From: an uncultured cyanobacterium
Lineage (GTDB): Bacteria > Cyanobacteriota > Cyanobacteriia > Cyanobacteriales > CAWCAG01
Direction of reading: 5' to 3'
DNA length: 64,000 nt
Assembly: GCA_963803805.1 (NCBI GenBank)
Contig: CAWDOD010000006.1
Location: forward strand, 64,001 to 128,000
In this document: one piece after another, positions 5,439 through 50,483 of the stretch
Layout of the letters: each line of letters starts with the position of its first letter
Position numbering within the stretch: the first letter of the stretch is position 1
The notes under the pieces: generated by a model
Database searches by the model: none
What the model saw: only the letters and a program-made list of their open reading frames with translations
What the model was told of the DNA's origin: nothing
Made by a program: the position numbers and the translations under genes

Positions 5439-6890
5439 ATGAATAAGCAAGCTTTTCTACGTCAGTGGTTTCCCCTTGGTTTAATACTATTATTGGCAGG
5501 GGGACTTTATCTCTACCAACTTGGGGCTGAAAGCCTGTGGAGTGATGAAATCATTAGTATTCTTGATGCAGAAGCTTTACCAAAAATTGTTAAAAAGGAA
5601 CGCCCCCTTTACTATCCCCTCCTACGCTTATGGATGTTCTTCGGTACTAGTGATGTTTGGTTAAGGGGATTATCGGTTTTATTCGGCTTAGGTAGCGTTT
5701 TAACAATTTATCTTTTGGGGAAGAAACTTTTTAGTAAATCAACGGGTTTGTTAGCTGCCTTGTTGTTAGCTTTGTCTCCTTTATTTATTTTCCACTTCCA
5801 AGAAGTACGGATGTATGGGTTGAGTGCTTTACTAAGCCTATGTGGTACTTTAGCACTAGCTTCAGCCCTAGAAACTCCCACTACTTTGTCTACTAATTTA
5901 TGGACTTTGGGGCGGGTTTTGATGCTCTATAATACTCCCCTCACTGCTCCTTTACTACTTCCTGATACTTTACTGATCGGGTGGCGTTTTCGCCAGCAAC
6001 CCAAGGTTCTATTTAAGTTTGGTATCCGTTTAACTTTTATTGTGGTTGCCTTATTGCCATTGCTTTACGCACTAAGTCGCAAGCCAGGGGAAAAAGGGCC
6101 AGATCAAGGAATTAGTAACTTGCCTAACTTCAGTGATTTTCTAGGAAGTTTGGTTAGCTACACAGTTTATTTTCATAAAATCCCCTTTCCTTCAAACACC
6201 ATTGAGTTACTCTATAAAGCCTTTGCTATTCTTCTGTTGGTTTTGTTAGGGTTTGTACTGTTCAAACTCAAAAAATTACCGAAGCTAGCTTGGGTAGCAA
6301 TGTGGGCTATTTTTCCCATGATGGTTTTATTTTTAGCAACTCCTATATCTATTAGACTTTGGCAACCTCGCCATTCTATGTTTGCCCTTCCTTATCTTCT
6401 CTTATTACTGGCCGTAGCCCTAGTGCAACTCTGGAATCGTCAAAAGGTGGTCGCAGTTTTCGCCTCCCTTATCTACGGTGTTGCAGTGCTAGGAGGGCTT
6501 ACTAACTACTACAAAGTACAGGATCGCATCGATTGGCGTGGTGTAGCCGATAAGATTGAAACCGAAGAACAACCTGGTGATGAAATTGCCATCTCCGCAG
6601 AAGTTTTTGGGCGGCTTTTTGCTTACTATTATGATGGTTCTGCACCTATTGTTGCTGTTTGGAAACCTGGCCCTCCTCAACCTCGCCCCCTATCTAAGTC
6701 TGTTATCAAAGAAGCAATTGACGATTTACCACCTTTTTCTTCCCGTCTCTGGTTTATTTATAAACACATTACTAGCACAGGAGAACAACAACATCAACTT
6801 ATTCAAGAAGTGATCGAAGAAGAATTTCAGGTAAGACAAGAACAGCACTTTGAGGAGATAGATTTGTATTTAGTGACTCCAAAAAACTAA
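5439..6890 (+). CDS. GT-C fold glycosyltransferase (family 39/PMT-like)
   Basis: SLWSDE, PLYY and EVRMY motifs; many TM helices. Confidence 0.8.
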   Translation: MNKQAFLRQWFPLGLILLLAGGLYLYQLGAESLWSDEIISILDAEALPKIVKKERPLYYPLLRLWMFFGTSDVWLRGLSVLFGLGSVLTIYLLGKKLFSKSTGLLAALLLALSPLFIFHFQEVRMYGLSALLSLCGTLALASALETPTTLSTNLWTLGRVLMLYNTPLTAPLLLPDTLLIGWRFRQQPKVLFKFGIRLTFIVVALLPLLYALSRKPGEKGPDQGISNLPNFSDFLGSLVSYTVYFHKIPFPSNTIELLYKAFAILLLVLLGFVLFKLKKLPKLAWVAMWAIFPMMVLFLATPISIRLWQPRHSMFALPYLLLLLAVALVQLWNRQKVVAVFASLIYGVAVLGGLTNYYKVQDRIDWRGVADKIETEEQPGDEIAISAEVFGRLFAYYYDGSAPIVAVWKPGPPQPRPLSKSVIKEAIDDLPPFSSRLWFIYKHITSTGEQQHQLIQEVIEEEFQVRQEQHFEEIDLYLVTPKN

Positions 6891-7872: not shown

Positions 7873-9343
7873 TTAACTTACCAGAAAATAAGTCTTCATC
7901 TGCCCCATACCTTTAATATAAATTTCACCACGCTCTTCTAATAAATATTGGTCTTGTAAAAGTTTATAAGTTACTTCACTCAATTGAATTTTACCCGGTA
8001 AACCATGGGATTCCATACGACTAGCAATATTAACTGTATCTCCCCACAAATCATAACTAAACTTTTTCTTGCCTATAACCCCTGCAACCACTGGCCCTGT
8101 ATGAATGCCAATGCGAAGGGAGAAGTCCTGTTGTGTTCTGGTACTTACTTGAGAAATAGCTGCTTGCATATCTAAGGCCATTTGAGCAATAGAATTGGCA
8201 TGGTCATCTCTTGGCAAAGGTAAACCTCCCACAACCATGTAAGCATCACCAATAGTTTTAATTTTTTCCAAATCATGTTTCCCTACTAACTGGTCAAATT
8301 CAGAGAAAATTAAATTGAGAATTTCTACTAACTTAGAAGGAGTAATACTAGCTGCTATTTTCGTAAAACCAACGATATCAGCAAATAAAACTGTGACTTC
8401 TGTGAAATTTTCAGCAATAGTGGATTTTTGTGCTTTTAGTTGTTCAGCAATGCTTGATGGCAAAATGTTTAGTAACAGCTTCTCTGCTTTTTCTTGTTCG
8501 ATGCGTAAAGCTTTTTCTACTCGCAATCTTTCCGTTATATCTCGACCAATATAAATTCTGTCTTCCTCAAAGTTTTGATTTTTCGAGCTGTTTTCTAAAT
8601 AGTTGTTAATAATAGAGCAAGAAAAAGATACAGGAACGCGCTGTCCTGATTTTTTCAAACAAAGTGTTTCTACATCTTGAAACAGAATCACCTGACAAAG
8701 TAAGAGATTTTTTGCTTACTTTACTGAGCAGATTGTTACCAATAATAATCTGAGAAATATGCTGACCGATTAATTCTAATTCTGTATAACCTAAGAGGTC
8801 TTTGGTTGCTTGATTGACAGCTTTAATTATCCCTTTGTCATTAGTAACAAACAAAGCATCAGCTAAAGAATCTACTAGTCTATCAATATAAGCTTTAGAG
8901 GCAGTTAGAGCATCAAGTAAGAGACTTGTTTCATTGCTTGCTTGTACTAAAGATTGTTCTAAACGCATTCTTGGGGTAACATCTTCACAAAAGATCACTA
9001 ACTCTCCATCACTGTTGTCCTCGTCCTGTTTCAAAATAGATAAATCAAAATAAAAATCTGTTCTATCTTCTTTAATCCTGCTCATTCCTTCAAGGTAAAA
9101 ATGAGCTTGTCTTCCTGCTATAATCTCTGTCAAAATGGCTTCCATGCCAATTAATTCAGGAAAGTATTCTTCTATATTCTTTCCTAATTCTACCTCAGTA
9201 AAACCTTCAGAAAAATTATGTACACCTGAAGAGACTTCTTTGATTTTGAAAGCCGAATTTATCTTGACATATTCTAAACTACGTAAAGATATAAATTTCT
9301 GAACGAAGGAATTCATCGAAGATTCTTCCATTTTCACAAGCAA
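7873..9343 (-). pseudogene. PAS-domain adenylate/guanylate cyclase split by a frameshift near 8680-8715
   Basis: ORF 8606-9343 holds the first part of a PAS domain; overlapping ORF 7873-8691 continues with the PAC motif and a class III cyclase (VLFADIVGFT, KIKTIGDAYM, YDLWGDTVNIASRMES). Confidence 0.85.
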
Positions 9344-9483
9344 CCCAAGCTGTAATCTTTGTCATTTTCATAACAAAGAGAGTGATAATCTAGGATTATG
9401 GCTACCGATAAGATGCTTCCATTGATACCACAAAAATGGGACGTACCCGTTAAACTGTTCAGAAGTGGTTTACTTAAACATCT

Positions 9484-10575
9484 ATGTCAGAAAGGCGCGT
9501 TATCGTCTCTACCTCTACTCTAGTCTTAACTGTAGTTATAGGACTACTCCTAGTATTGCTATGGCAACTCAGAAGCTTATTAGTGGTGTTGATGATTGCT
9601 TTAGTATTGGCTGCGGCTTTAGCCCCAATTATTGAGCAGGCAGAAAAATTAAATACCCCTCGCTGGTTAGCTGTTTTACTAGTATATTTAGGGTTAATTG
9701 CTGGTTTAACGGGAGTTGGTGTTTTAATTGGTCCTGCTGTAGTAGAACAAATTCAAAATCTTTTCCGCAGATTACCAGCTTATTTAGCCGTTTTAGAATC
9801 CTTAGCCGATGGTTTAGAACAACGTTTAGGATTAACGGACTCTTTCTTAGGAGATTTATTTGATACCCAAACTGTTCTCAATTGGTTTATTGGTTCTAGT
9901 CAACAGTTGTTGGTACGTTCCTACGGAGTAACTAGGGGGATTATTGGGGGTGCTATTAATGTCTTTCTTGTTCTCCTAATTTCTGGTTATATGTTATTAG
10001 GAGCTAACAAATTAATTGATAGTTTGGTTAGCCTTTTTCCTCATCCTTGGAATAGACGATTAAAAGCACAAGTCACCCCTGTTAGCCAACGTATGGGAGG
10101 TTATATTCAAGGAAGAGTATTAGTCTCAATTATTTTAGGTATTGCTGTTAGTATTGGCTTAAGAATTTTAGGGCTTTCAGAATTTGCTTTAGGTTTGGGA
10201 GCTATTGCCGCTATGACTAACTTAATTCCTTTCTTCGGACCTATTTTAGGAGCAATTCCGGCTTTGATTGTGGCCATTGGTCAAGGTGGTTGGCTCTTCC
10301 TTTGGGTTTTGTTATTGTTTGTAATTATCCAAAACTTAGAAACCTATCTTCTAGATCCTCTCCTTGTTGGTAACACTGTTAAGGTTTATCCCCTTTATCA
10401 ACTTTTGGCTGTTTTAGGAGGAGTACAAGTTCTTGGCATTGTGGGGGCGGTGATTGTTCCTCCTTGGGTAGCAGGTGCTTCTGTACTATTGAGTAATCTT
10501 TACCTCAGACCCAAAAAAATTGCTGAACAACAAACTACTAAAATTGATGATTCAGAAACCCTCAACGATTCGTAG
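9484..10575 (+). CDS. AI-2E family transporter
   Basis: Multi-TM; NLIPFFGPILG and IQNLE motifs. Confidence 0.88.
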   Translation: MSERRVIVSTSTLVLTVVIGLLLVLLWQLRSLLVVLMIALVLAAALAPIIEQAEKLNTPRWLAVLLVYLGLIAGLTGVGVLIGPAVVEQIQNLFRRLPAYLAVLESLADGLEQRLGLTDSFLGDLFDTQTVLNWFIGSSQQLLVRSYGVTRGIIGGAINVFLVLLISGYMLLGANKLIDSLVSLFPHPWNRRLKAQVTPVSQRMGGYIQGRVLVSIILGIAVSIGLRILGLSEFALGLGAIAAMTNLIPFFGPILGAIPALIVAIGQGGWLFLWVLLLFVIIQNLETYLLDPLLVGNTVKVYPLYQLLAVLGGVQVLGIVGAVIVPPWVAGASVLLSNLYLRPKKIAEQQTTKIDDSETLNDS

Positions 10576-19381: not shown

Positions 19382-19439
19382 AAATTAGTGATTAGTTAAG
19401 AATTAAGCGTTTTTATTCTATAGCAGTTCTCACTTCCGC

Positions 19440-20093
19440 TTATGATCTCTCCAAGATCCCCAAACTCTCAATCAACTGGGGTTGTTCCTCCAAAGCAATC
19501 CTGGCAATAACCACAAAATCACTCAACCAAACATTAAGCTCCTCAATCACTGCATCCCTCACCTTCGTCGCATCCTGGGCTTCTCCCATCTCCTTCTTCT
19601 GGGCCAAATTAGCAGCCTCCACAGCCTCCACCTCTGCCTGTGCCGCCTCCAACTTTGCAGGGGTAATGCCATACTCAGCAATTGCATCCAGAAAACCTTG
19701 ATTACTAAGGATATTTTGATAAAACTGCTTTGCCTCCAACAACCAAGCAGAAAGAGCGCGTTTGCGGATGCCATTGAGGGCTAACTCTGCTGCTGCACCG
19801 GGATTATCCTTAAAGGTAATGCGGGCAATCTTCAGGTGGCGATTGTAACTTGCTTTCGCCACTTCCCAAGTTTCGTTAAGGGTTGCGGTAGCGCTGTACT
19901 GTTCTCCGTATTCTTTAGTTTGCTTTTGCTGTGCGGCTAAAGCTTGATCATAAAGGGCTTTACCTTTTTGGAGTTTTTCTGGGGTGTAACCGTATTCTGT
20001 TAAGTAAGCCTGAATTTGAGGTTGACTGAGGGCGTTATCAATGGCAACGCGAGCATCATTAAGGAAACTGTCAAGGGTTTGATTAATTGCCAC
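19440..20093 (-). CDS. Hypothetical all-helical protein of two ~105-aa internal repeats
   Basis: EYGYTPEKL...KEYGEQYSAT...IARITFKDNP aligns with EYGITPAKL...KEMGEAQDAT...IARIALEEQP. Confidence 0.85.
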   Translation of the reverse strand: MAINQTLDSFLNDARVAIDNALSQPQIQAYLTEYGYTPEKLQKGKALYDQALAAQQKQTKEYGEQYSATATLNETWEVAKASYNRHLKIARITFKDNPGAAAELALNGIRKRALSAWLLEAKQFYQNILSNQGFLDAIAEYGITPAKLEAAQAEVEAVEAANLAQKKEMGEAQDATKVRDAVIEELNVWLSDFVVIARIALEEQPQLIESLGILERS

Positions 20094-20220
20094 GGTGATT
20101 AATTTAGTAAATTGTTGTTGTTCGGCTATACATAGCTACGAAGGAATGAGCAGTTGTTAGAGAAAAGTCAGGGAAAATGTCATAAAAATTAAAGAGTTAG
20201 TCCGAGGAATGGCAAAGTAA

Positions 20221-20367
20221 GCTTACGGAACGATTTATTTGACTTACTCAATGACTTATTCGACTTACGGAACGATTCATTTAGCTTACTCAACGACTTA
20301 TTCAACTTACGGAACGATTTATTTGGCTTACTCAACGACTTATTTAACTTACGGAACCATTTATTTG
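20221..20367. repeat. Tandem array of seven 21-bp units in alternating A/B pattern (42-bp period)
   Basis: A consensus RCTTACGGAACGATTTATTTG x4; B consensus RCTTACTCAAYGACTTATTYR x3. Confidence 0.95.
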
Positions 20368-20380
20368 GCTTATTACTTAT

Positions 20381-20442
20381 TAGGGCGACCCAATTTCAAC
20401 TCTGGTTGGTTGGAAATACGAGTGAAAACGGGTCGCCCCTAC
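20381..20442. repeat. REP-like inverted repeat (GTAGGGGCG family)
   Basis: TAGGGCGACCC...GGGTCGCCCCTAC. Confidence 0.7.
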
Positions 20443-20450
20443 ACTACTAC

Positions 20451-21188
20451 TTACTTCCCCAATTTCCCAACTTCCTCAACAGACAAACTCAAAGCCGCCG
20501 CTACCTGTTCCACACTCAAACCCAACGCTAATAAACGGGGAACAGCTTCCCTTTGTGCCTGTTCAGCTTCTCGCCTAGCTTGTTCAGTTTCTTGATAACT
20601 CAGTAATTTTTCACCTGTTCGAGGGTCATAGAAACGTAATTCTTTCTCAATTAACCTTAAATCTAACCCCAATGTCTCAGAATACATCGACATCACTCCC
20701 CCATTCGCCACACTCCTAGCTATGGGTTGGTAAACCCCCTCTACTAGTCTCACCCCCTTGAGTTGCTGCTTGAGGTAATCTCCTGTGGGGTCATATTGAA
20801 AATACTCTTCTACTCCCAGGTTTTGGTAGGTAATGGGCTTTTGTTCTTCGTCTACTTTTTTGGTTGTGTTTGAAGTGATTTCTAAGACAAAGCTGGGGAC
20901 TTTTCCCCCTTCTTCCCATACTTTGTAGGTTTTACGTTTCTTCTTCTCTACACCGAAGACAACAAAGACATCTGGGGCTACTACTGATTTTGGTACACCT
21001 TTTTGGTAGTAGATAAATAAGTTACCGGAGATATAAACATCTTGCCGGTTTTGAAAGTAGATGCTGAGGGCCTCTACACCATAAACTAAATAATCCCTAG
21101 TAGGATCACTTTCTGCCATTGGTTCGCCGTCACTATAGGGATAGAGGTCATCTTCTGTTTCAATGAGTTGTTCTGATGAAAGAGTCAT
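20451..21188 (-). CDS. Uma2 family PD-(D/E)XK endonuclease-like protein
   Basis: YPYSDGEPMAES, APDVFVVFG, FVLEITS and EYFQYDP motifs. Confidence 0.93.
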   Translation of the reverse strand: MTLSSEQLIETEDDLYPYSDGEPMAESDPTRDYLVYGVEALSIYFQNRQDVYISGNLFIYYQKGVPKSVVAPDVFVVFGVEKKKRKTYKVWEEGGKVPSFVLEITSNTTKKVDEEQKPITYQNLGVEEYFQYDPTGDYLKQQLKGVRLVEGVYQPIARSVANGGVMSMYSETLGLDLRLIEKELRFYDPRTGEKLLSYQETEQARREAEQAQREAVPRLLALGLSVEQVAAALSLSVEEVGKLGK

Positions 21189-30212: not shown

Positions 30213-30240
30213 TAGCAACTAGCAACTAGCAACTAGCAAA
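30213..30240. repeat. Heptamer tandem repeat (TAGCAAC), 3 perfect plus 1 imperfect copy
   Basis: Read directly; reverse complement of the repeat at 47839. Confidence 0.85.
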
Positions 30241-31967: not shown

Positions 31968-32005
31968 AAGTAATAAGTAATAAGTAATAAGTATTAAGTA
32001 ACAAG
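31968..32005. repeat. Heptamer tandem repeat (AAGTAAT) about 5 copies
   Basis: Read directly. Confidence 0.75.
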
Positions 32006-37176: not shown

Positions 37177-37285
37177 ATTGGCGAAAGAAGAAGCCGGAAG
37201 TAAGGAAAAGAGATACTAATTTTTTGTTGTAAAAAACAACTACAGCGATCAACTATTAGCAATTAGTAATTAGCAACTATCAATT

Positions 37286-47832: not shown

Positions 47833-47838
47833 GTTAGA

Positions 47839-47915
47839 GTTGCTAGTTGCTAGTTGCTAGTTGCTAGTTGCTAGTTGCTAGTTGCTAGTTGCTAGTTGCT
47901 AGTTGCTAGTTGCTA
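47839..47915. repeat. Heptamer tandem repeat (GTTGCTA)x11
   Basis: Eleven perfect copies counted. Confidence 0.97.
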
Positions 47916-47986
47916 ATGGCTAGTCGCTTGCCTATTGCCTTCAGGTTAATATTAATTACCCTACAGAGGACGGATTTGGTATAAGT

Positions 47987-50483
47987 ATGAAGCGAGATGA
48001 GTTGCTGCGGGTAATTGAAGAGGCGGCTAAGACGGGGGCCAAGGAGTTGGATCTGGCGGGGCATGATCTGACGGAGTTGCCAGCAGAAATAGTCCAACTC
48101 ACTAACCTCACTTCCCTTAACCTGACGAGTAACCAGCTAGGGGAACTACCAGCGGAAATAGGGCAACTCACTAACCTCACTTCCCTTTACCTGAGTTATA
48201 ACCAGCTAGGGGAACTACCAGCAGAAATAGTCCAACTCACTAACCTCACTTCCCTTTACCTGAGTGATAATCAGCTAGGGGAACTACCAGCAGAAATAGG
48301 GCAACTCACTAACCTCACCTCCCTTAACCTGAGTTATAACCAGCTAGGGGAACTACCAGCAGAAATAGGGCAACTCACTAACCTCACCTCCCTTAACCTG
48401 AGTTATAACCAGCTAGGGGAACTACCAGCAGAAATAGGGCAACTCACTAACCTCACCTCCCTTAACCTGAGTTATAACCAGCTAGGGGAACTACCAGCAG
48501 AAATAGTCCAACTCACTAACCTCACTTCCCTTTACCTGAGAAATAATCAGCTAGGGGAACTACCAGCAGAAATAGTCCAACTCACTAACCTCACTTCCCT
48601 TTACCTGAGAAATAATCAGCTAGGGGAACTACCAGCAGAAATTCGCCAACTGCCACAACTCGAAACACTCGACCTACGGGGCAATCCCTTGCCCATTGCT
48701 CCAGAAATACTTGGCCCCAAAGAAATATATAAAGATCCTGGCGACATCAACGCCATCCTTGACTTCTACTTCGCCACCCAAGACCCCAAGGCCACAGAAA
48801 AACTCTACGAAGCTAAATTTCTCATCGTTGGGGAAGGGGGGGCAGGGAAAACCTCCCTGGCTAAAAAGATCCAAGAATCCTGAATACCAACTCGACCCCG
48901 AAGAAGACTCTACCCACGGCATAGAAGTAATTGAGTGGCGCTTTCCCCTTGATGAGGGGCAAGAATTTCGTGCTAACCTCTGGGACTTTGGGGGGCAGGA
49001 AATTTACCACCAAACTCACCAGTTTTTCCTTACTGAACGCTCTCTCTATGCCCTGGTGGCGGACACTCGTAAGGAAAATACTGACTTTCCCTACTGGCTT
49101 AATTCCATTGAACTATTCGGGGGGGATAGCCCGGTACTTTTAATTAAAAACGAAAAAAATGACCGACCCTGCAATGTTAATGAGGGAAGGCTGCAAAGGG
49201 ACTTTCATTACATTAAAGAAATCTTACCCACCAACCTTAAAGATGGTCGCGGTTTAGAAGAGATTAAAACCGCCATCCGCTATCACATTAGCCGCCTGGA
49301 ATATGTGGGTACTCCCTTACCTAAAAAATGGGCGCGGGTGCGTTATGCCCTGGAAAATGATGCCCGCAACTATATTGAACAGAGTGATTACTTTGCCCTC
49401 TGCCTCCGTAATGGAGTGAGGGAGAGAGAAGAAATGCTGCAAATTAGTGACTTCCTCCATAAACTGGGCATCTGTCTCCACTTCCAACAAGACTCCACCC
49501 TGAAACATATCGTCATTCTCCGCCCAGAGTGGGCCACCAATGCCGTTTATGCGGTGGTTAAAAACAACAAAGTTGCGGCTGCAAAAGGTTTGTTTACTCG
49601 TTCTGACCTTAAAGAAATTTGGCAAGAGAGGCAATACGCCTACATGGAAGATGAACTGCTGCAACTAATGCAGAATTTCAAACTCTGTTACCCCATCCCC
49701 GGTTTACCACAACATTACATCGCCCCGCAATTACTGGAATTTGAACCACCGGATTATGATTGGGAAGAGAAAAACAATTTAATGCTGCGCTATGAATATG
49801 AGTTCATGCCCAAGGGCGTCATTACCCAACTTATCGTCCGGCTTTATCGCTGGATTGAACAACAGCAACTAGTTTGGCGTAGCGGTGTCGTCCTTAACAA
49901 TAGTCGCGCCCGCGCCGAAGTCATCGAAACCTACCGCCCCTACAAAGGGGAAATCTGCCTCCAGGTTTCCGGTATCCATAATAAAGAACTTCTCAGCGTG
50001 GTGGCTAACGAAATTGACCAAATAAATAGTTCTTTTGAAAGAATAGATGTTAGTAAAAAGATTCCCTGTAACTGTAAAGAATGCCAAAATGAGCCAGAAC
50101 CCTATTTCTTTAAGTTAGAAACCCTCTATCGCGCCCTTGATAAAAAGCGTTATATAATCGATTGCCACAAAAGCTTTGAAGATGTCAATGTTCGCAGCTT
50201 AACGGCTGTGGTAGAAGGTGATTTATTTTCAGGGGAAGAGAAAAAACAATTCCAGCAAGCAAGGTTTGAACGCTTAAAAGAGCGGCATACTGAATATTAT
50301 CAACCTAATTCTAAAACCATGAGTTCTAAATTCCACATCAGCGCCGATAATGTGCAAATTGTTGAAAATATCGCTCAGGGGGATGCTGTCATTCACAAAT
50401 ACGCTAACAACCCCGAAGTCAAGACAGCCCTCGATGACTTATTAAAATTCCTCAAAGACTTACAACAGAATCCCTTCCCTTAA
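47987..50483 (+). pseudogene. Roco protein (LRR-Roc-COR) split by a single-base frameshift at about 48869-48878
   Basis: LRRs and P-loop GEGGAGKTS in first ORF; STHGI, WDFGGQEIY..THQFFLT, KNEK and COR in second ORF. Confidence 0.9.
48068..48640 (+). repeat. Eight near-identical 69-bp tandem repeats encoding 23-aa LRRs
   Basis: Units start at 48068, 48137, 48206, 48275, 48344, 48413, 48482, 48551, plus a partial at 48620. Confidence 0.95.

Follow-up and report, generated by a model that had tools for sequence, protein, structure and literature searches.

A 21-bp-phased repeat array beside the genes of the PQLLE family in Cyanobacteriota and other phyla

The gene, the array and their flanks

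The stretch of DNA analysed here, hereafter the window, comprises 64,000 nucleotides of an uncultured cyanobacterium (positions 64,001 to 128,000 of contig CAWDOD010000006.1, assembly GCA_963803805.1) and carries on its minus strand a gene for a 217-residue protein of the PQLLE family, preceded by a tandem array of 21-bp units. We find that the gene (19440-20093) and the array (20222-20372) constitute one conserved module, the pairing of which is real and widespread: An array phased at 21 bp lies upstream of the gene in 62 of 73 loci of its relatives, distributed among eight named phyla plus unplaced bins. The module is also undescribed as far as titles and the opening parts of abstracts tell, since a literature search reaching these found no publication on the PQLLE family, on its NCBIfam model NF052641 or on its array. 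A preliminary description, drawn from the letters of the window alone, had singled out the gene and its array as a possible new system; its observation is confirmed, while its interpretation is partly supported. Positions given without a locus number are those of the window, in which the following features are of concern.

19440-20093, minus strand: gene of the PQLLE family (NF052641), an open reading frame (ORF) of 217 codons for an all-helical, internally duplicated and acidic protein (isoelectric point, pI, 4.86)
20094-20221, minus strand: proximal stretch of 128 nt from the array to the GTG start, the presumed place of promoter and 5' leader
20217-20226, no strand assigned: palindrome GTAAGCTTAC, formed by the GTAAG of the last unit and an inverted copy of it, abutting the candidate -35 hexamer
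20222-20372, minus strand: tandem array of seven 21-bp units plus 4 nt in the order A-B-A-B-A-B-A, found with Tandem Repeats Finder (TRF), as repeat families and by counting its motif against shuffles
20383-20438, minus strand: strong hairpin with arms at 20383-20398 and 20423-20438, directly 3' of the Uma2 stop codon, from a search for inverted repeats
20451-21188, minus strand: Uma2 gene (Pfam, E 5.1e-16), upstream of the array

The ORF of the PQLLE gene is real, for its homologues begin at the same start position; no Shine-Dalgarno sequence lies ahead of its GTG. Judged from its match to NF052641 (E 1.2e-76, 257.1 bits against a cut-off of 80, residues 4-213 on positions 2-211 of a profile of 211), the product is a full-length member of what NCBIfam calls the 'PQLLE family protein'. 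This name derives from a C-terminal motif and says nothing of function; the window version reads PQLIE (EEQPQLIESLGILERS), with P205, Q206 and E209 invariant or nearly so in a family whose listed lengths are mostly 202-239 aa. A word-indexed search returned 265 relatives, very uniform in length, the closest being P0001 (95% identity) and P0002 (86%), and an exhaustive profile search returned 3598 representative clusters (at 50% identity) with E ≤ 0.001, 1240 of them with E ≤ 1e-30. No fused members of 381-2000 aa were found, and the entries of 258-341 aa are either ORFs that gene callers have run through the array or proteins with unrelated N-terminal extensions, two of them showing repeats of 14 aa and 7 aa.

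The protein is itself a twofold duplication, as previously noted, its halves being 31% identical over 94 residues (E 8e-11). In the AlphaFold2 model, which is all-helical with a predicted local distance difference test (pLDDT) of 94 and a predicted template modelling score (pTM) of 0.79, each repeat has a helix of 17 residues, then a short one and, after the conserved loop YG[YI]T, a third of 56 residues (38-93 and 145-200). The topology of the chain suggests that the two long helices run antiparallel, which would produce a rod of ~84 Å with a small helical head at each end. The window protein matched no family of Pfam or PHROGs and nothing similar by sequence in the PDB; PADLOC assigned 0 families to it and to three relatives, and the ESM Atlas returned only clusters labelled 'hypothetical'. 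A kinship with DUF6261, for which an ESM Atlas value of 0.87 and a DUF6261 neighbour in one locus (L065) could be cited, was dropped at an hhalign probability of 0.3%.

The array starts a unit at each of 20222, 20243, 20264, 20285, 20306, 20327 and 20348, with A-type units (CTTACGGAACGATTTATTTGA-like) in positions 1, 3, 5 and 7 and B-type units (CTTACTCAACGACTTATTCAA-like) in positions 2, 4 and 6; in the orientation of the gene they read AAATCGTTCCGTAAG(YYR)AAT and AAGTCGTTGAGTAAGTTGAAT. The strict alternation claimed for them is borne out by TRF, which finds 7.2 copies with 72% matches at period 21 and 3.6 copies with 91% matches at period 42, and by self-identity, which is 0.92 at lag 42 versus 0.72 at lag 21. 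The core pattern of the units occurs seven times inside the array with 0-1 mismatches each, and only three times in the rest of the 64 kb, each with 3 mismatches; against the total of 10 matches, 1.96 are expected and 0 of 100 shuffles of the window reach that number. The gene-side end of the array lies 128 nt from the GTG at 20093, close to the ~130 bp estimated earlier, and the alignment with the arrays of relatives places it in the same register and orientation.

On the gene side of the array the palindrome GTAAGCTTAC sits where it had been reported. A promoter can be proposed by eye just beyond it, with a -35 hexamer TTGCCA (20215-20210), an 18-nt spacer and a -10 hexamer TAATTT (20191-20186), but it is a weak candidate. 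On the other side, 78 nt separate the stop codon of Uma2 from the array, and most of them are taken up by the hairpin. This hairpin had been described as resembling repetitive extragenic palindromic (REP) elements. The hairpin itself exists and is stable (-31.1 kcal/mol, z -5.66, with 0 of 200 shuffles equally stable), but its REP character is not supported, as the arm GGGCGACCC recurs in the 64 kb only as two matches with 1 mismatch, at chance level. Devoid of a U tract, the hairpin delimits the array on its distal side, and it may represent the terminator or 3' end of Uma2. Downstream of the PQLLE gene lies panD (Pfam).

Pairing and constraint across phyla

The pairing was evaluated in the loci of the best 80 of 122 relatives, taking one genome per species (loci are cited by L numbers where they have to be told apart); cultivable species among them include Draconibacterium sediminis, Carboxylicivirga marina, Ekhidna lutea and Marinoscillum furvescens. 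A locus was counted as positive on TRF and autocorrelation criteria combined, the count being restricted to the 73 loci in which the DNA upstream of the gene extends for 300 nt or more. By phylum label, positives amount to 26/32 for Bacteroidota, 24/27 for Cyanobacteriota, 3/3 for Calditrichota, 2/2 for Chloroflexota and 1/2 for Ignavibacteriota, with one each labelled Planctomycetota, Cloacimonadota and Bacillota, 3/3 that are unplaced and 0/1 for Myxococcota. The statement in the preliminary description that Bacteroidota relatives also sit beside arrays with multiples of 21 bp has thus proved accurate. Phylum labels of single contigs from metagenome-assembled genomes (MAGs) need to be taken with caution, given that one 14,255-bp contig appears in two MAGs of different phyla, candidate division KSB1 and Phycisphaerae (L022 = L023).

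The enrichment of 21/42-bp arrays beside homologues, which had been proposed as a check, is strong. TRF finds in 50 of the 80 loci an array of period 20/21, 41/42, 61-63 or 82-84 that ends no more than 750 nt upstream of the gene, and its rows of period 21, 42 and 63 number 60, 28 and 8 in the upstream zones versus 6, 1 and 1 in more than 10 times as much other flank. By autocorrelation, 60 of 74 upstream segments (those of the 73 loci and of the window) lie above the 99th percentile of 1037 controls. The strongest lag is 42 in 35 of these segments, 21 in 17 and 63 in 9, hence one of the three in 61/74, or in 66/74 if the near-multiples 20, 41, 61 and 62 are included; among control segments, lag 21 is strongest in only 7 of 200. 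Chains of the unit motif, meaning at least 3 matrix matches spaced 20-22 nt, number 48 in 53.2 kb of upstream zones versus 1 in 687 kb of other flank, a comparison in which only the near-absence elsewhere is informative because the matrix derives from these same arrays. That single chain is an orphan array of six units in L016 (8338-8463), adjoining a Uma2-like gene and with no PQLLE ORF behind it. The related L020 has a fragment of a PQLLE gene (residues 98-144) in the corresponding place, and the orphan array may be the remnant of a lost second copy. Two further loci carry genes with in-frame stops, L001 (810-1463, where the stop replaces the conserved Trp of the first long helix) and L068 (6001-6636), which could be pseudogenes or assembly errors.

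Arrays contain from 2.5 to 18 units (median 7.2) and end 39-532 nt from the start codon (median 105), usually at a distance of 40-150 nt. After cyclic alignment, 50 of 54 have the same orientation as the gene, with the consensus aAATcatTCccnaCCAcnnAG, into the register of which the window fits (AAATCGTTCCGTAAG...). The units share a core AAT-S-r-TTC...ACC, in which A2, T8 and C15 are the most informative positions according to a matrix of 256 units from 41 loci. This core is partly dyad-symmetric about position 5, where C and G are almost interchangeable. Pairs 2-8, 3-7 and 4-6 are just as complementary as their column frequencies would lead one to expect, without covariation, and therefore reflect symmetric conservation rather than covarying base pairs. 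Within one genome, paralogues differ in the sequence of their units (L002/L007, L014/L027, L034/L038). Some Bacteroidota arrays switch orientation internally (L061 5621-5826, L043 ~5840-5880, and L057), their head-to-head halves meeting at a palindrome (GATGACCGGGTCATC in L061).

Purifying selection acts on the arrays, for they are better conserved than the synonymous sites of the gene they precede. Between L013 and L017 identity is 0.86 in the array, 0.86 in the proximal stretch and 0.58 at 4-fold degenerate sites of the gene; the corresponding values are 0.75, 0.68 and 0.31 for L013 and L015, and 0.83, 0.70 and 0.59 for L006 and L011. Repeat alignment may inflate the figures for the array, a problem from which the non-repetitive proximal stretch is free. 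These values bear on the proposition that the array is a functionless minisatellite which hitch-hikes with the gene. Orthologues do differ in unit number by steps of 21, 42 or 63 nt, and assemblies often break at the arrays, a contig end lying less than 1 kb upstream of the gene in 19/80 loci and less than 1 kb downstream in 5/80; we ascribe this excess to the breaking of assemblies by repeats. A minisatellite, however, would hardly keep its period, core and orientation across phyla, nor an identity between orthologues well above that of 4-fold sites, nor a motif that is nearly absent elsewhere, and we consider this explanation scarcely credible.

Several observations concern the proximal stretch. 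Inverted partial units next to the gene are seen in the window (GTAAG|CTTAC), in L078, in L077 and in L013/L017/L018. The cyanobacterial group L006-L028 has, ~60-75 nt before the start, a block YGGGCAnnCTGAAG (GGGAACGCT in the L013 group) with TGTGTAC...TACAGAC ahead of it and no predicted RNA structure; either the promoter or the beginning of the transcript could include this block. In L038 and L042, which come from a Bacteroidetes-labelled and a Melioribacteraceae MAG, array and gene are separated by 160-170 nt that are 80% identical and contain a small hairpin (GAACTAT-AAGGG-ATAGTTC in L038) followed by a GGGAG ribosome-binding site. L079, a locus of a Myxococcota-labelled MAG, harbours a second PQLLE paralogue, 33% identical (9203-9802), upstream of which GTAAGCTTAC occurs twice, 42 bp apart (9027-9036 and 9069-9078). 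The surrounding region (8960-9130) has GTAA[GC]/GTTAC motifs in rough 21-bp phase and a long inverted repeat (GTTGTAACAGTGCAA...TTGCACTGTTACAA).

What the array may do

Arrays of regular, short, non-coding repeats, often in defence-rich surroundings, call to mind CRISPR arrays and other guide-RNA arrays such as those of TIGR-Tas. The likeness ends there. The preliminary description had already set CRISPR aside, rightly so, as the whole period of the array is repeat (period 42, 91% matches) and unique spacers are lacking. There are no cas or tas genes either: The neighbours in the window are panD and Uma2, and the neighbour scan in the relatives (138 of 140 ORFs, the two of L023 being left out because they belong to the same contig as L022) contains one Cas4-like gene (L078). 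Nor does Rfam offer a match, with nothing relevant between 18000 and 22500 of the window at E ≤ 10 or in 12 loci at the gathering score. Near one of the relatives' loci, L053, lies a group II intron domain (9545-9620; RF00029, 68.8 bits).

A period of 21 nt equals seven codons, and the array might consequently encode a heptad-repeat peptide or an upstream ORF, alone or coupled to the gene. Consistent with this, the majority register-frame is open in 29/40 arrays, ORFs of at least 100 aa run over the array and end within ~90 nt of the gene start or overlap it in 10/80 loci, and the databases hold proteins with repeat extensions of 7 or 14 aa. Yet coding heptad repeats had to be rejected as a general feature, since no register-frame is open in every array and 5/40 are closed in all three frames of the gene strand. 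The window is shut in the majority frame (15 stops) and open in another; its ORF has 48 aa and stops 95 nt ahead of the gene. Moreover, the periods of 20, 41, 61 and 82 in some clades and the unit spacing of 20-22 break the frame, and the best-conserved positions (2, 8 and 15) do not coincide with codon positions 1-2 in the frame that is mostly open. A coding function is therefore exceedingly improbable.

The array could also act as RNA. The idea of a structured repetitive non-coding RNA, which the preliminary description had entertained, did not survive folding analysis: Array plus leader of the window fold worse than shuffles on both strands (z +0.78 and +0.82), the median z of 41 arrays is -0.52 for the gene strand and -1.13 for the other one, and no consensus pairs are predicted in 17 cyanobacterial proximal regions. 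Alternatively, transcription of the array might yield a long unstructured 5' leader, or a separate repeat RNA, which would either be bound at its repeats by the PQLLE protein (in translational autoregulation or as a sponge) or enhance the recruitment of ribosomes. Such a function would suit the almost invariant orientation of the arrays, their position directly upstream of the gene, the unusual lack of structure of the gene strand at several loci (L007 has -11 kcal/mol per 218 nt, z +3.5, besides the positive z of the window) and the fact that gene callers extend ORFs through the arrays into the gene. It does not sit well with a dyad-symmetric core in which the C/G centre is interchangeable and covariation absent, with the inverted units of some loci, with the ATG-containing cores (AATGATT) that are common on the gene strand and would create many upstream start codons, with the scarcity or absence of space for a promoter distal to the array in the window and L021, or with the silence of Rfam. 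On balance we regard an RNA function of this kind as rather unlikely.

We lean towards double-stranded DNA, in favour of which several observations speak. The centre of the core is a single base, too short for an RNA loop; some arrays hold inverted units or head-to-head halves (L061, L043, L057); the arrays fold no better than shuffles and the proximal region has no consensus structure. Furthermore, there is little room for a promoter distal to the array, because the hairpin fills most of the gap in the window and the upstream gene of L021 ends only 9 nt from the array.

The explanation that we favour, tentatively and with less than even confidence, is that the array is a platform of phased promoter sites on double-stranded DNA, bound by the PQLLE protein itself and working like iterons or partition centromeres. 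The array would then be a row of binding sites, one per two helical turns and hence all on one face of the DNA, which ends at the promoter of the gene. The PQLLE protein would bind its own array cooperatively, each of its two pseudo-symmetric heads reading the partly palindromic core of a unit (AAT-S-ATT), so that one protein could bridge neighbouring units; the predicted rod of ~84 Å is close to the 71 Å of 21 bp. The inverted partial unit proximal to the gene (GTAAGCTTAC in the window) might serve as the operator by which the protein sets its own level, and the outcome would be a nucleoprotein array that is self-specified and subject to autoregulation or titration. The analysis demonstrates the pairing, the period, the orientation, the shared core and the purifying selection, along with the lack of a general RNA structure and of a consistent reading frame; that the array acts as DNA, that the protein binds it and bridges its units, and that it regulates its own gene is what we infer.

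As to the identity of the binding partner, the PQLLE protein is predicted to be the most economical candidate. This is because no other neighbour is conserved, the units of paralogues differ and the inferred length of the pseudo-dimer matches one unit, but also because two copies of GTAAGCTTAC, spaced 42 bp, precede a paralogue of 33% identity in another phylum and because inverted array 7-mers in the proximal region exceed expectation.

A competing proposal on the DNA side assigns the array to a host factor, be it a response regulator, a Fur- or CRP-like dimer or RNA polymerase, for which it would be cis-regulatory DNA; the PQLLE protein would simply be the regulated product, perhaps an abundant structural or stress protein. 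An acidic protein without DNA-binding domain would accord with such a role, as would the strong Shine-Dalgarno sequences (such as AAGGAGG) that suggest high expression at many loci, the location of the last unit at the presumed -35 place in the cyanobacterial clade and the resemblance of the palindromic core to the sites of dimeric regulators. However, the host factor would need to have one specificity throughout eight named phyla, and paralogous arrays in one genome differ outside the AAT-S-ATT core. The motif chain occurs away from a PQLLE gene just once in the 687 kb of flanks, hence it is not a regulon-wide site, and 2.5 to 18 phased sites are far above the number that ordinary regulators use. 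Regulation by a host factor thus appears rather unlikely.

Self-binding of the array by the PQLLE protein has, for its part, to contend with a number of facts that weigh against it. The protein is acidic (family median pI 5.09), has no DNA-binding domain recognisable by Pfam or NCBIfam, and its whole model finds no neighbour at E ≤ 0.001 by Foldseek in the PDB (best 0.091) or BFVD. A likeness of the conserved YG[YI]T..K loops to helix-hairpin-helix motifs was dropped after a model of the N-terminal 66 residues (pLDDT 85.7) gave a best E of 5.4 against the PDB. The dyad symmetry of the core is partial, being carried by the pairs 2-8, 3-7 and 4-6 only; the A/B alternation, to be expected if proteins bridge neighbouring units, is clear in just 13/37 of the longer arrays (in several clades), 7/37 being homogeneous and one repeating every three units. 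A transcribed leader would account equally well for the strict strand orientation. The excess of inverted 7-mers is modest, 28/51 loci versus 18.4 expected.

Eleven of the 73 loci, moreover, fail the array test. Degenerate or inverted units can be recognised by eye or motif scan in five of these (L040, L041, L056, L057 and L064) and L068 is the copy with the in-frame stop already mentioned, while L025, L030, L058, L076 and L079 show by the same means no array trace upstream of the gene. Finally, a consensus scan of the window gave no sigma-70 promoter meeting its criteria, and TAnnTTTG, a promoter motif of Bacteroidota, is absent from the 700 nt upstream in 27/33 Bacteroidota loci examined; these scans are uninformative about where transcription starts.

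Inheritance, known systems and significance

The surroundings of the PQLLE genes are heterogeneous, as is typical of variable regions, and no conserved neighbour emerges from the 138 ORFs scanned. Uma2, also present in the window, accounts for 10 of them; others encode nucleotidyltransferase, PIN, MazF and DUF559 proteins, or GmrSD, NACHT, ThsA-Macro, SIR2, OLD-like, HsdR-like and Cas4 proteins, and genes of mobile elements are limited to three IS200-like, one integrase and one DDE transposase. Several genomes have two or three copies of the family. Searches by tblastn found no match in 72,556 plasmid or 50,697 phage records, and the loci lie on contigs of up to 5.4 Mb. In the protein tree, from which four rows were left out (L001 and L068 for their in-frame stops, L062 and L073 for being short), Cyanobacteriota form one clade and phylum labels change 10 times versus a minimum of 8. 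The few near-identities across phyla (L037/L051, L038/L042 and L022 = L023) may be binning artefacts. In evolutionary terms, the absence of plasmid and phage matches and a tree that largely follows the phyla indicate that the module is old, mostly vertically inherited and locally duplicated. It is not demonstrably mobile, contrary to what had been surmised for it, and neither transposase nor integrase is a regular neighbour.

Such a pattern leaves little ground for the notion that a mobile replicon, integrated or defunct, has its origin (iterons plus initiator) or its centromere (a parC-like site plus adaptor) in the module. The layout of the module is that of iteron/Rep pairs, with phased 21-bp direct repeats upstream and, at some loci, an inverted partial repeat at the presumed promoter; its neighbourhoods are rich in accessory, toxin-antitoxin and defence genes with the occasional integrase, DDE or IS200-like gene, and several copies per genome are possible. 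But plasmid and phage collections have no match, genes for a partition NTPase, a helicase loader or other replication proteins do not regularly lie nearby, the fold is unlike the winged helix of Rep or the ribbon-helix-helix of adaptors and has no Foldseek match, and inheritance is largely vertical on contigs that reach megabase size. We therefore deem an origin or centromere of this sort very unlikely.

This judgement concerns descent and replication; as an analogy for binding, the same systems remain instructive. Iteron arrays with their Rep initiators, known from theta-replicating plasmids such as F, R6K and pPS10, share with the PQLLE module direct repeats of ~17-22 bp with two-turn phasing immediately upstream of the gene, differences in sequence between paralogues and, at some loci of the module, an inverted partial repeat near the presumed promoter through which the gene could be autorepressed. 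In contrast, the PQLLE module is chromosomal and absent from plasmid and phage collections, its protein is an acidic helical rod with no match to Rep families (Pfam, NCBIfam) or to winged helices (Foldseek), nothing points to a function in replication, and the family has its 3598 representative clusters in metagenomes. Partition centromeres include parC/ParR of R1 and pSK41, the heptad arrays bound by omega and the 43-bp repeats of sopC/SopB. There, as in the reading that we prefer for the PQLLE module, a repeat array adjoining the gene of the coating protein doubles as operator, and sopC is particularly similar in having direct repeats of ~42-43 bp with an inverted repeat inside each. Unlike partition systems, the PQLLE module has no NTPase gene of ParM, ParA or TubZ type among the 138 neighbours or in the window, and its protein no ribbon-helix-helix or helix-turn-helix match. 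The module is hence a member of neither group.

Tandem, non-coding repeats are otherwise familiar from the intergenic DNA of cyanobacteria, as heptamer repeats and REP elements. The PQLLE array differs from these in its period of 21, its conserved core and its bond with one gene family, as well as in its occurrence in Bacteroidota, Calditrichota, Chloroflexota and others; the hairpin that flanks it is unrepeated in the window. Heptamer tandem repeats are themselves numerous in the window (TRF; 47838-47928, 31968-32005, 30213-30239, 37255-37285 and others, for instance AGTTGCT x13 and AAGTAAT x5.4). We take them to be the short tandemly repeated sequences typical of filamentous cyanobacteria, and they agree with the cyanobacterial placement of the window protein in the tree. 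The window also contains a 69-bp tandem repeat (48080-48651, 8.3 copies, 94% matches) within ORF 47987-48883, encoding a 23-residue protein repeat that is, judged from its period, probably similar to leucine-rich repeats.

The PQLLE gene and its array might represent a new class of self-specified nucleoprotein device, a bolder proposition that we hold to be possible but doubtful: a rod-shaped pseudo-dimer, as long as two turns of DNA, would polymerise head to tail on its own 21-bp-phased array, each paralogue reading its own unit, and the loaded array would function as a titration or memory switch or as a sensor. If this were true, such a device would occupy variable chromosomal regions rich in defence genes in Cyanobacteriota, the Fibrobacterota-Chlorobiota-Bacteroidota (FCB) group and Chloroflexota, and its protein would have a DNA-reading fold without solved relative. 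There is a practical side too, as the arrays break assemblies and mislead gene callers into N-terminal repeat extensions. The PQLLE family is large, is spread over many phyla and has no structural relative that we could find, yet it brings along a hint of a kind that few unknown proteins offer, namely a conserved, phased, sequence-specific array next to the gene. Work on it could reveal a new fold for the recognition of nucleic acids, together with a new way of coupling a protein to a private repeat array.

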